Source: Candidatus Kaiserbacteria bacterium
GTDB taxonomy: Bacteria > Patescibacteriota > Minisyncoccia > Phycocordibacterales > UBA918
Assembly (NCBI GenBank): GCA_019634005.1
Contig: JAHQWD010000003.1
Coordinates: 2,525 to 66,524, forward strand
Length of the DNA: 64,000 bases
Direction of reading: 5' to 3'
Shown in pieces: positions 5,873 through 7,727 of the stretch. A model generated the notes under the pieces. It worked only from the letters and a program-made list of their open reading frames with translations. It was not told where the DNA came from and did no database searches. Position 1 is the first letter of the stretch, and every line of letters begins with the position of its first letter. Both the position numbers and the translations under genes were made by a program.

Positions 5873-5946
5873 GTCGGCGTAGCTCAGTTGGTTAGAGCAC
5901 AACACTCATAAAGTTGGGGTCGGAGGTTCAAATCCTCCCGTCGACA
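5873..5946 (+). tRNA. tRNA-Met (CAT), elongator or tRNA-Ile2 (lysidine) type
   Basis: GTCGGCGTAGCTCAGTTGGTTAGAGC...CTCATAA...GGAGGTTCAAATCCTCCCGTCGACA. Anticodon CAT at 5907-5909. Pair 31:39 is A:A. Confidence 0.8.
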
Positions 5947-5953
5947 CTTTTAC

Positions 5954-5983
5954 AAAGACCGCTCTCTGGGCGGTCTTTGTGTA
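5954..5983 (+). terminator. intrinsic terminator
   Basis: AAAGACCGC-tctctg-GGCGGTCTTT followed by a gtgt/T-rich stretch. Confidence 0.65.
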
Positions 5984-6080
5984 TAAATAGGATATATCCA
6001 CGTACTGTTATACTACAATAGTATAAGTGCCTATATTACGTTCATTACATCAAGACTTTTTCAAAAAATGGAGCAATGAC

Positions 6081-6698
6081 ATGGCTTATGTTTTAGGGTT
6101 TTTTGCTGCAGATGGGAGTATGCTAGAGAATAATCGCGGAGCGCACTATATTGAGTTTCATATTACGGACAAAAAGATTTTAGAACAGATGAGGGAAGCT
6201 ATGGGCTCTAATCACAAGATTAAAGAGAGGAAAAGAGATGAAAAATGGAAGCCTATCTACAGACTGCAAATAGGGAGTAAAGTATTCTATGAAGATTTAC
6301 AAAAACATGGTTTTACTCAAGCAAAGAGTCATACTTTAAAATTACCCTTAGTTCCAAAGAAATATATTGCAGATTTTGTTCGTGGGTATTTTGATGGAGA
6401 TGGATGTGTTCACTTTAAACAGTATAAAGTGAGGGGTCGGAAAAAGCCAAAGTGGGTCTTCCAGACTCGTTTTACTTCAGGAAGTAAAAATTTCTTGCAG
6501 GATTTACACAATCTATTAAAAGATTACGGTGTAGCAAGAGGTTTCATTACGAAGAAAAATAGGGGGCACGAACTTGTGTTCAGTCATCGCGATGGTGTTG
6601 CATTATATCGATTAATGTATAATAATACCCCTCGTATTTATTTAAAACGTAAATACAACATCTTCAGAAAAGCAATGAAGACGCTTTATGGAGAATAA
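6081..6698 (+). CDS. LAGLIDADG-family homing endonuclease (double-motif, free-standing)
   Basis: Two LAGLIDADG motifs are present: MAYVLGFFAADGSM and ADFVRGYFDGDGCVHF. The RBS tggag lies 10 nt upstream of ATG 6081. The stop is 2 nt before tRNA-Asp exon 1. AT-rich compared with the flanking sequence. Confidence 0.85.
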   Translation: MAYVLGFFAADGSMLENNRGAHYIEFHITDKKILEQMREAMGSNHKIKERKRDEKWKPIYRLQIGSKVFYEDLQKHGFTQAKSHTLKLPLVPKKYIADFVRGYFDGDGCVHFKQYKVRGRKKPKWVFQTRFTSGSKNFLQDLHNLLKDYGVARGFITKKNRGHELVFSHRDGVALYRLMYNNTPRIYLKRKYNIFRKAMKTLYGE

Positions 6699-6700
6699 CT

Positions 6701-7015
6701 GCGGGCGTAGCTCAATTGGTTAGAGCACCCGCCTGTAGACGTGCAGCTTTCCGTCCGAAAGACGGATTGAAACTTTCCGGGATATCGGTGAAGGCTAAGT
6801 CATTGATGCAGTTAGCTTGAAAAGGTTACTGAGGAGATATGCGAATACCGAGGGAACCCATAACACAAAAACACATAGTTATGGGGCGCCGTAGAGACTA
6901 GATACCGGGATACCTAAGGATAATGAATCTATGGTAAAGATATAGTCCGTGCCATTATGAAAATAGTGGATTTCACGCACGCGGGAGGTTGAGGGTTCGA
7001 GTCCCTTCGCTCGCG
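6701..7015 (+). tRNA. tRNA-Asp (GTC) interrupted by a group I intron (exons 6701-6736 and 6978-7015)
   Basis: Joined exons read GCGGGCGTAGCTCAATTGGTTAGAGCACCCGCCTGT|CACGCGGGAGGTTGAGGGTTCGAGTCCCTTCGCTCGCG. This closely resembles E. coli tRNA-Asp (CCTGCCTGTCACGCAGG...GGTTCGAGTCC), with discriminator G. Confidence 0.8.
6737..6977 (+). mobile_element. group I self-splicing intron (IC3-like tRNA intron) in the anticodon loop of tRNA-Asp
   Basis: The core GCCGTAGAGACTAGATACCGGGATACCTAAGGATAATGAATCTATGG resembles, from memory, the Azoarcus/Anabaena tRNA intron P7/P3/P8-P9 region (GUAGAGACUAGA...CCUAAGG...CUAUGG). The IGS 5'-GUGCAG (6741-6746) can pair with exon CUGU in P1, giving U.G at the 5' splice site, and with the 3' exon CAC in P10. 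A terminal G at 6977 fits omega-G. A P9 extension hairpin carries a GAAA loop. Confidence 0.8.
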
Positions 7016-7056
7016 CAGTTAGAAAAAGAGTCCACGTTTGTGGGCTCTTTTTGTAT
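7011..7056 (+). repeat. direct repeat copy A: tRNA-Asp 3' end plus intrinsic terminator
   Basis: tcgcgcagttagaaaaagagtccacgtttgtgggctctttttgtat. The hairpin is AAAAAGAGTCCAC-gttt-GTGGGCTCTTTTT. A near-identical copy lies at 7752-7796. Confidence 0.8.
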
Positions 7057-7094
7057 AGAGAGTGGTATTGGAATTGTGTGGTATTTTTATCTGT

Positions 7095-7727
7095 ATGGAA
7101 AACAAGATTCTCTGGCACGGTACCGGTAGGTATAAATATGATTCAGAAGGAAATGTCTACGATATCTTTCAGGGAATTATTGAAGATGGAGGATTGGTCC
7201 CGCACTTAGACGAATGGGATCAAAAGCGAGGTGCTTGCTATTCCATATCAACAACTCGCTCGCGTGCATATGCTCGGCTGTATGCGAGCCTTTTCTTTCC
7301 GTCTGATAAACGTAGTTTAAAAGAATTATTTAGAAGACTTATATGGTGTCTTCGTTTCTTCCTCACGAGCAAGTATGTTGCGTGGATGGAATATACACCG
7401 TTTAGACCACACATAACTGATTTTCGGAGGAAGATTATATCTTGGGCAAAGAAATACTCATCAGATACTCGGTCTTTCATATATCTTTTTCTTTGGGGAG
7501 GTACTGACATCCCCAATAATTACCCAATACTGATATGCATAAAAGGAGATGGTATTGCTCCAACCAAGGGATCTCGTTTTGTCGATTTGCATGAAATACG
7601 TAGTGAAGAGAAAATTTCCCTAGAAGATTTTAAGTGTATTGAAGTGCCCAAAGAGCATATTTCAGAGATTCATAGCCTATTACATGTGGCAGGGTGTGAG
7701 ATTCCTGTCGTAACCTTAGACAGTTAG
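7095..7727 (+). CDS. hypothetical protein (cargo of the repeat-flanked segment)
   Basis: MENKILWHGTGRYKYDSEGNVYDIF... ~210 aa, AT-rich, with no recognisable domain. The computed ORF starts with GTG at 7062; ATG 7095 was chosen as start. Confidence 0.5.
   Translation: MENKILWHGTGRYKYDSEGNVYDIFQGIIEDGGLVPHLDEWDQKRGACYSISTTRSRAYARLYASLFFPSDKRSLKELFRRLIWCLRFFLTSKYVAWMEYTPFRPHITDFRRKIISWAKKYSSDTRSFIYLFLWGGTDIPNNYPILICIKGDGIAPTKGSRFVDLHEIRSEEKISLEDFKCIEVPKEHISEIHSLLHVAGCEIPVVTLDS

Follow-up and report, generated by a model that had tools for sequence, protein, structure and literature searches.

A free-standing LAGLIDADG endonuclease gene beside an intron-bearing tRNA-Asp gene in Patescibacteria, with the intron as its possible immunity and passenger

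What does a homing endonuclease gene (HEG) do when it lies next to a group I intron rather than inside it? The question is raised by a 64,000-nt stretch of contig JAHQWD010000003.1 from a Candidatus Kaiserbacteria bacterium (assembly GCA_019634005.1), hereafter the window, in whose numbering all coordinates of this locus are given. Here, a tRNA-Asp(GUC) gene that is split by a group I intron is preceded, with a gap of 2 nt to its exon 1, by an open reading frame (ORF) with two LAGLIDADG motifs (Table 1). A first-pass annotation of the window had proposed collaborative homing, in which the free-standing enzyme cuts intron-less tRNA-Asp alleles and thereby mobilizes the neighboring intron in trans. 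Comparison with related loci led us to a modified version of this proposal, towards which we lean with limited confidence: the gene would encode a free-standing enzyme directed against tRNA-Asp, and the intron would serve as both its passenger and the immunity against it. The HEG would then be the primary element, occurring more often without than with an intron, and the intron would be one of two solutions to the immunity problem.

The physical arrangement proved to be as first described. The gene lies outside the intron and is AT-rich (33-39.5% GC versus about 45-53% in the flanks), and no plus-strand ORF of at least 40 amino acids (aa) was found within the 241-nt intron. The exception was the start codon, which the first-pass annotation had placed at 6081, 54 nt downstream of its probable position. 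An open frame begins with a GTG at 6027, directly after an in-frame TAA. We favor this start because the 18 additional N-terminal residues (MPILRSLHQDFFKKWSND) are conserved across homologues, with ATG at the start position in 36 loci and GTG in 13, and because the alignment with PHROG 4645 (E=6e-38) already begins at residue 5 of the long, 223-aa protein. Most likely, the gene therefore comprises 6027-6698, and 6081-6698 is the portion read from an internal ATG.

More than 3950 homologues with 56-67% identity were found, nearly all of them in Paceibacterota/Patescibacteria. We retrieved 80 loci from species-representative genomes (L001-L080); counting the window, 73 loci were resolvable. The HEG was located directly 5' of tRNA-Asp(GTC) in 73 out of 73 loci, all from different species. 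The tRNA-Asp gene contained an intron in 26 of these loci and was uninterrupted in the remaining 47. With only 26 out of 73 loci bearing the intron, the HEG is bound to tRNA-Asp and not to the intron, so the collaborative homing envisaged at first could not stand unmodified.

Which sequence would such an enzyme recognize? When the DNA preceding the HEG start codons was aligned, a 22-bp motif emerged, GGTTAGAG-(TAATRT)-CCTGTCAY, of the general form GGTTAGAG-N6-CCTGTCAC, that is, two conserved blocks with 16 scored positions. It was present with at least 12/16 matches in 30 out of 79 HEG loci, and 28 copies ended at a distance of 0-19 nt upstream of the start codon. The motif is followed, 2-5 nt downstream, by an extended -10 element (TGnTATAAT-like), and the ATG or GTG comes another 6-7 nt later, a distance short enough to suggest a leaderless HEG mRNA. 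The two blocks and their 6-nt spacing are identical to those found in tRNA-Asp between the D-loop (G18...) and the anticodon loop (...C38), a stretch that reads GGTTAGAG-CACCCG-CCTGTCAC; the mimicked part covers tRNA positions of about 18-38 and includes the intron site at 35/36. Of the 22-mers with at least 13/16 matches in 915 kb of locus DNA, 48 lay in tRNA-Asp and 25 no more than 60 nt upstream of a HEG; of the remaining three, two preceded a HEG at a greater distance and the third belonged to a tRNA-Asp that had escaped annotation. A variable center between two 8-bp blocks is the geometry of LAGLIDADG sites. Because the motif mimics tRNA-Asp with exactly this geometry, and considering the precedent of the I-TevI operator described below, we infer that the mimicked tRNA-Asp stretch is the homing site. 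The upstream copy, in turn, is probably an autoregulatory operator with an AT-rich center at the HEG promoter of many relatives, as judged from its placement and from the I-TevI analogy.

We also considered that the motif might be the decaying 5' half of a displaced tRNA-Asp and rejected this origin: the DNA flanking the motif, including that upstream of it, does not resemble a tRNA, conservation is confined to the two blocks, and the motif is canonical even at loci whose own tRNA-Asp deviates.

If the tRNA-Asp stretch is the target, a genome carrying the HEG should not hold it intact. HEG-bearing loci nearly exclude an intact canonical target. Where the spliced tRNA-Asp matched the motif blocks at 16/16 positions, an intron was present in 17 out of 22 HEG-bearing loci, compared to two out of nine loci with 15/16 matches and six out of 41 with 14/16 or fewer (16/16 versus the rest, Fisher test, p=1e-6). 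Restricting the comparison to HEG loci with the upstream motif gave nine out of nine versus one out of 17 (p=3e-6). The window follows this pattern, as its spliced tRNA-Asp matches the blocks at 16/16 positions and its intron splits the right block of the predicted target (CCTGT/CAC). In intron-less HEG loci, the D-loop is shortened, the D-arm differs or the D-stem holds one inserted nucleotide instead (variant D-arm sequences: GGTTAGTAGC, CGGTAGAGC and GGTTAACAC). Since these intron-less loci nearly always have a tRNA-Asp that deviates from the predicted target, the collaborative-homing idea survives, and the intron looks like one of two immunity routes.

As a separate observation, the D-stem of L009, L049, L043/L048 and L062 has one additional base in its 3' strand (GGTTAG^T^AGC or GGTTAG^C^AGC); these loci are all HEG-bearing and intron-less and are distributed over several HEG clades. 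This insertion appears to have arisen several times; it would bulge the D-stem, and the sequences may represent convergent resistance alleles.

A different recognition site could also be imagined. The enzyme might recognize the junction between spacer and tRNA-Asp 5' end, which is destroyed by its own insertion, and never touch the anticodon region; the intron would then be an unrelated passenger spread via gene-conversion tracts, with no role in immunity. Such junction homing would explain the invariable position of the HEG directly at the tRNA-Asp 5' end, as if insertion had split a target, and it accommodates the 47 out of 73 intron-less HEG loci, five of which have a canonical, uninterrupted tRNA-Asp, as well as intron-only alleles (L151, L197). 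The correlation between intron and HEG distance matrices (r=0.38, p=2e-4) would likewise be expected from linkage alone. However, the sequence just 5' of tRNA-Asp is not conserved in empty sites, so that half of the target would be variable. Moreover, junction homing leaves unexplained why HEG promoters carry a 22-bp mimic of tRNA-Asp in which the blocks are spaced identically, and why the presence of the intron among HEG loci depends on a match in the D-arm, about 15 nt from the intron site (77% versus 15%). On this evidence, we regard junction homing as unlikely.

Complementarily, we scanned metagenome contigs with a 30-nt exon-1 pattern blind to both HEG and intron, which yielded at least 118 non-redundant loci, at least 96 of them informative. 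Among the 96 informative matches listed, 85 had neither HEG nor intron, three had a short C-terminal HEG remnant without intron (L090, L143 and, more weakly, L112), six had both intron and HEG (with L084 being a frameshifted pseudogene and L106 and L116 being cut by contig ends) and two had the intron only (L151 and L197). In these canonical tRNA-Asp alleles, a HEG thus accompanied six out of eight intron-bearing but zero out of 88 intron-less genes (Fisher test, p=3e-8). The enrichment of the intron beside the HEG and the location of the predicted target around its insertion site speak for collaborative homing at a bacterial chromosomal tRNA gene, and the arrangement fits this mechanism; the tie between HEG and intron as originally stated does not hold, with two out of eight intron alleles being HEG-free. 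The window intron itself has three equally close relatives (82% identity), one of which is that of L197, a HEG-free locus.

Co-occurrence of this kind can also result from common descent. If HEG and intron had colonized tRNA-Asp separately, their joint presence and the link to canonical D-arms might merely reflect the ancestry of a few host clades. The loci are indeed related, HEG distances partly follow those of the host GatA (Mantel r=0.40, p=6e-4) and the intron state carries phylogenetic signal, requiring at least 14 changes on the HEG tree compared to a null mean of 21.5. Even so, the intron state must have changed independently at least 14 times, and the association between intron and target remained significant when permuted within coarse (p=2e-4) and medium (p=0.017) clades, even though the test within the finest clades was not significant. 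Furthermore, in canonical alleles from many lineages, among the matches listed, the intron was found in two out of 90 loci without but in six out of six with HEG, and L185, the nearest host relative of the window at hand, lacks both elements. Separate colonization combined with shared ancestry therefore appears quite improbable to us.

The intron belongs to a recently described class. Group I (IA) introns at position 35/36 of tRNA-Asp and tRNA-Asn have been reported in Patescibacteria, with in vitro self-splicing shown for a tRNA-Asp intron of the class from another genome (Nakagawa et al. 2026; PMC13011429). In that study, HEGs were sought inside introns only, most tRNA introns were found without HEG and their mobility was judged poor; a flanking free-standing HEG is not mentioned, and the term 'free-standing' occurs zero times in the text. 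The window intron shares phylum, tRNA, insertion site and U/omega-G boundaries with this class (splice context CCTGT/AGACGTGCAG ... CACG/CAC, the last intron base being G 6977), and a CUGU/GCAG P1 helix with a U.G pair is readable in its sequence. From its class and the 97% identity of the fused exons to the uninterrupted tRNA-Asp of L185, it is predicted to restore a functional tRNA-Asp(GUC) by self-splicing.

Like other members of the class, the intron is missed by standard tRNA finders. ARAGORN did not call the split tRNA-Asp in the window at default settings, and reported a tRNA-Asp(gtc) at 6701-7016 with a 241-nt intron after tRNA position 36 (35/36 in standard numbering) once introns were allowed. 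This mode also gives spurious calls, such as a 'tRNA-Pro with intron' across the tRNA-Met region or 'tRNA-Tyr/His' for L003 and L066, which is why we set boundaries by rule, that is, a U before the intron and a G at its end, followed by CAC and the complementary anticodon stem. In this manner, 34 homologous tRNA-Asp introns of 196-243 nt with the same boundaries were recovered. The Rfam Intron_gpI model (RF00028) matched 6711-6969 with 50.2 bits at a gathering score of 50, and this threshold was reached by three out of 21 tRNA-Asp introns checked (window, L010 and, with 82 bits, L063). As 18 out of 20 scanned loci fell below the cut-off despite mutual identities of 46-92% (mean 70%), a behavior also noted in PMC13011429, Rfam alone was unusable for scoring intron presence. 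A second group I intron (RF00028, 69 bits) was observed at L032 2157-2369 on the minus strand, upstream of the HEG, in the opposite orientation and in a different gene.

We then turned to the protein. PF14528 (LAGLIDADG_3), one of the two families to which the first-pass annotation had pointed, matches the ORF 6081-6698 in two stretches (E=9e-19), while the other, PF00961, gave a weaker match, as did PF14527 (WhiA LAGLIDADG; 27 bits, first motif region only). An AlphaFold2 model built with 32 homologues reached a predicted local distance difference test score of 91.2 and a predicted template modeling score of 0.87, and shows the order alpha-beta-beta-alpha-beta-beta-alpha twice, corresponding to the pseudo-dimeric LAGLIDADG fold. 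The best Foldseek match in the PDB was I-Tsp061I (2DCH; E=5e-11; phmmer E=1.5e-5), followed by bI3 maturase, I-AniI and I-OnuI-type meganucleases; the top PDB matches were all LAGLIDADG enzymes with a probability of 1.00. The catalytic aspartate is kept in motif 1 (..ADG) in 79 and in motif 2 (..GDG) in 80 out of 80 homologues, and both are present in the window. The ratio of nonsynonymous to synonymous substitution rates between the closest homologue pairs was 0.06-0.17. The gene is thus an intact LAGLIDADG gene under purifying selection. Based on its two motifs, catalytic residues and modeled fold, and on its behavior as an optional element at a fixed site, the window ORF is a single-chain LAGLIDADG homing endonuclease with predicted cleavage activity.

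How is the element distributed and maintained? The order GatA, small ORF, tRNA-Met, (HEG), tRNA-Asp ... tRNA-Thr, PrfB is common to occupied and empty loci, with a same-strand tRNA-Met upstream in most HEG-bearing and most empty ones, and a typical empty site consists of tRNA-Met, a spacer of 40-100 nt and tRNA-Asp. In L185, a fairly close relative of the window (96% identity in tRNA-Met, 97% in the tRNA-Asp exons), this spacer measures 66 nt and both elements are absent from the locus. HEG-bearing and HEG-free loci are interleaved among equally diverged hosts. As empty sites prevail in related genomes, and frameshifted copies and short remnants occur, the HEG is best described as a sporadic selfish element. 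With HEG distances partly following those of the host, its persistence looks largely vertical with frequent loss. A scan of viral contigs returned only relatives with at most 37% identity, one out of 80 of them near tRNA genes, and identified no phage vector.

The combination of strong purifying selection, intact ORFs over deep divergences and partial co-divergence with the host could, alternatively, indicate domestication, with the protein being kept for a host function as maturase of the tRNA-Asp intron or as WhiA-like regulator that binds the upstream motif and controls the tRNA-Asp operon. The presence of bI3 maturase and the bifunctional I-AniI among the structural neighbors, the weak PF14527 match and the operator-like promoter motif would be in line with such roles. 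A host function is hard to reconcile, though, with absence from about 90% of related loci and with the existence of pseudogenes and remnants, and we consider domestication very improbable. The maturase variant was rejected, as the gene lies outside the intron, two thirds of the HEG loci (47/73) have no intron to splice and introns of the 35/36 class self-splice in vitro protein-free (PMC13011429). The WhiA-type regulator was rejected as well: both catalytic aspartates are kept, unlike in WhiA, and the 223 aa are all LAGLIDADG fold, with no additional C-terminal helix-turn-helix domain.

In the favored reading of a tRNA-Asp-targeting endonuclease, the HEG would be an active selfish element of a Patescibacteria-specific lineage with a fixed home in the tRNA-Asp leader, between tRNA-Met and tRNA-Asp. 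Its recognition site would comprise about 22 bp of the tRNA-Asp gene from D-loop to anticodon loop (GGTTAGAG-N6-CCTGTCAC), with cleavage expected at the site center near tRNA positions 26-29, between D-arm and anticodon arm, and with the right half-site containing position 35/36, where the intron is inserted. A carrier genome must then not hold an intact target; in the window, the 241-nt intron would provide this protection by interrupting it, and in other lineages D-arm indels or substitutions would take the place of the intron. Upon cleavage of a naive allele, repair from the HEG-bearing chromosome would copy the intron, located about 8 bp from the cut, together with the HEG, whose end lies about 26 bp from the cut on the opposite side, and the conserved tRNA-Met and tRNA-Asp exon 2 would serve as homology arms. 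Finally, the enzyme would repress its own promoter through the mimic motif.

Several points weigh against this reading. Cleavage, target, immunity, mobilization and operator role all derive from the motif, co-occurrence and sequence comparison. HEG and intron superficially appear to be inherited independently, with 47 out of 73 HEG loci being intron-less and two out of eight intron alleles being HEG-free. Five HEG-bearing loci (L013, L029, L034, L035 and L057) combine a 16/16 tRNA-Asp that is not interrupted with catalytic residues that appear intact, and six loci are intron-bearing though their tRNA already deviates from the motif. The association between intron and target gave p=0.16 within the finest clades, a comparison with low power among phylogenetically related loci. 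The HEG-free comparison set was chosen by the canonical exon-1 pattern and hence is not an unbiased sample of HEG-free tRNA-Asp alleles. Recent horizontal movement is not demonstrated, because no near-identical HEGs were seen in divergent hosts among the compared loci and HEG distances partly track the host. About 60% of the HEG loci lack the upstream motif, and the window copy matches at only 10/16 positions, compared to 12-16/16 in relatives; it is not significant alone and was recognized by its position and its homology to L001 and other loci. Repression via the operator would also lower tRNA-Asp transcription, which is awkward.

The 2-nt gap between HEG and tRNA-Asp leaves no room for a separate tRNA promoter, so both are probably co-transcribed, with the tRNA being freed by RNase P. 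Two strong hairpins bracket this unit (Table 1). The upstream one probably separates it from tRNA-Met, even though a consensus terminator scan of the window did not flag it, and the downstream one is likely its terminator; both functions are deduced from folding and position. A sigma-70 consensus scan of the window found no promoter upstream of the HEG, and our statements on promoters rest on the -10 element conserved in relatives. In the L185 spacer (1473-1538), a good sigma-70-like promoter for tRNA-Asp (TTGAAA, 17 nt, TATACT) was read by eye, and the window HEG sits between such a promoter region and tRNA-Asp.

Table 1. Features of the tRNA-Met/HEG/tRNA-Asp locus in the window
Feature	Position	Strand	Details
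tRNA-Met(CAU)	5873-5947	+	ARAGORN and Rfam tRNA, 67.5 bits; left border of the HEG insertion site, conserved upstream neighbor
Hairpin after tRNA-Met	5951-5981	+	Folding energy -21.2 kcal/mol, z = -7.6; terminator-like
Degenerate copy of the 22-bp target-mimic motif M	5990-6011	+	GGATATAT-CCACGT-ACTGTTAT; 15 nt upstream of the start codon
-10-like element TATACT	6009-6014	+	Overlapped by the motif copy
Free-standing single-chain LAGLIDADG HEG (predicted)	6027-6698	+	223 aa; GTG start; TAA stop 6696-6698
LAGLIDADG motif 1	6093-6119	+	LGFFAADGS; catalytic Asp
LAGLIDADG motif 2	6381-6407	+	RGYFDGDGC; catalytic Asp
tRNA-Asp(GUC) exon 1	6701-6736	+	ARAGORN, introns allowed; ends ...CCTGT
Left 19 bp of the predicted 22-bp HEG target	6718-6736	+	GGTTAGAG CACCCG CCTGT; within exon 1
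ORF-less group I intron	6737-6977	+	241 nt; tRNA position 35/36; Rfam RF00028, 50.2 bits
tRNA-Asp exon 2, to discriminator base	6978-7015	+	CAC GCGGG ...; begins CACGCGGG
Hairpin followed by T-run	7023-7052	+	Folding energy -20 kcal/mol, z = -6.7

The surroundings of the HEG in other loci showed further peculiarities. Its stop codon lies inside tRNA-Asp in 48 out of 72 loci, mostly at tRNA positions 8-10 or 13-15 and often using the universal U8-A9-G10. In these loci, RNase P cutting of a co-transcript would remove the stop codon, so that the mRNA left behind would be a non-stop one; this does not apply to the window, where the stop lies 2 nt ahead of the tRNA. In seven loci (L034, L036, L038, L043, L060, L061 and L068), the HEG starts 2-21 nt after tRNA-Met without motif or promoter, and its mRNA must come from a tRNA-Met/HEG/tRNA-Asp precursor, reminiscent of mitochondrial tRNA punctuation. 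L070, a metagenome-assembled genome labeled Omnitrophota, has a tRNA-Val(TAC) about 40 nt 3' of the HEG in place of tRNA-Asp, the sole such case among the 80 loci, which may reflect a target switch or a rearrangement. L046 contains an orphan 24-nt fragment resembling a tRNA-Asp 5' end (GCGGGCGTAGCTTAGCCCGGTAAA; about 543-566), 19 nt upstream of the HEG start. The fragment is not identical to the tRNA-Asp that this locus carries, terminates close to where cleavage is predicted and may be a scar of imprecise homing; nhmmer with a tRNA-Asp profile was too insensitive for cataloguing pseudo-tRNA fragments upstream of HEGs. Finally, an AT-rich 221-aa ORF without match in Pfam, PHROGs and NCBIfam lies between tRNA-Asp and tRNA-Thr of the window (7062-7727, plus strand). 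As the corresponding gap in L185 is only about 210 nt long, it looks like a second insertion in the tRNA cluster.

The mechanism class is already known from phages, in which free-standing HEGs beside ORF-less or defunct introns have precedents, as the first-pass annotation had noted for ORF-less introns, and the intron class is known from PMC13011429. In cyanophage S-PM2, F-CphI and the psbA intron engage in collaborative homing (Zeng, Bonocora & Shub 2009; PMC6083498). There, too, a free-standing HEG lies beside a gene with an ORF-less group I intron. In that system, the target was shown to span the intron site and the intron to block self-cleavage and gain mobility, as would be the case for the tRNA-Asp HEG. 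The settings differ, with a phage, a protein-coding gene and an Endo VII-type nuclease on the one side, and a bacterial chromosome, a tRNA gene and a LAGLIDADG protein on the other. Unlike F-CphI, the tRNA-Asp HEG, as judged from sequence, spans hundreds of species, has D-arm variants as a candidate alternative immunity route and carries a promoter-proximal target mimic.

In phage T4, MobE mobilizes the defunct nrdB intron and I-TevIII in trans, and the intron is inherited via HEG-dependent gene conversion (PMC2790892), which we propose for the tRNA-Asp intron as well. Both systems place a free-standing HEG beside an intron-bearing gene, and many tRNA-Asp HEG relatives, located 2-21 nt after tRNA-Met, appear to share the dependence on upstream transcription. 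In contrast, MobE is an HNH nickase studied in phage crosses and its intron contains a dead HEG, whereas the tRNA-Asp system combines an ORF-less intron with a LAGLIDADG protein. The closest parallel for the promoter motif is I-TevI, for which autorepression via an operator resembling the homing site has been described (Edgell et al. 2004; PMC2988022). In both cases, a target-like sequence overlies the HEG promoter; the identity is 15/20 for I-TevI, compared to 12-16/16 block positions with the same spacing in the tRNA-Asp HEGs. I-TevI is an intron-encoded GIY-YIG enzyme with demonstrated operator binding and repression, whereas the operator role of the tRNA-Asp motif is conjectural and the window copy degenerate.

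With respect to the enzyme, the window HEG resembles I-Tsp061I (PDB 2DCH), an archaeal rRNA-intron enzyme and its closest solved structure, as well as I-DmoI-type enzymes and the LAGLIDADG enzymes of rRNA introns in the candidate phyla radiation (CPR; PMC11270868), with which it shares the single-chain two-motif fold and a conserved structured-RNA gene as (predicted) target. The archaeal and CPR enzymes are encoded inside the intron they mobilize, whereas the window HEG lies outside both intron and gene. In the searchable literature, we found no description of a widespread free-standing LAGLIDADG lineage at bacterial chromosomal tRNA-Asp, of its promoter-proximal target mimic or of the intron-versus-D-arm immunity pattern.

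Through collaborative or trans homing, ORF-less introns and free-standing endonucleases are proposed to combine into mobile introns, a process for which there are so far few examples, all from phages. If our reading is true, the tRNA-Asp HEGs would add a natural, species-rich example from bacterial chromosomes, involving a tRNA gene and the LAGLIDADG family, in which empty, HEG-only, intron-only and doubly occupied loci as well as decaying HEGs are available for comparison. Our reading further predicts a 22-bp target, open to direct testing, for a family of meganucleases that are compact (223 aa) and exist in thousands of natural variants. The view of Patescibacteria tRNA introns as endonuclease-less and poorly mobile (PMC13011429) would have to be revised, and there would be a concrete reason for intron retention in genome-reduced bacteria. 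More broadly, and as a tentative picture that we hold to be possible rather than probable, the loci may record a long-running, Patescibacteria-wide conflict between a LAGLIDADG HEG and a single tRNA-Asp gene, in which the enzyme would cut between D-arm and anticodon arm, regulate itself by a mimic operator and persist only where tRNA-Asp is uncuttable, owing either to a HEG-spread intron at 35/36 or to oddities such as the bulged D-stem GGTTAG^T^AGC. Should this be true, it would be as by-products of endonuclease immunity that these minimal genomes keep their tRNA introns and that some of their tRNA-Asp sequences are unusual.

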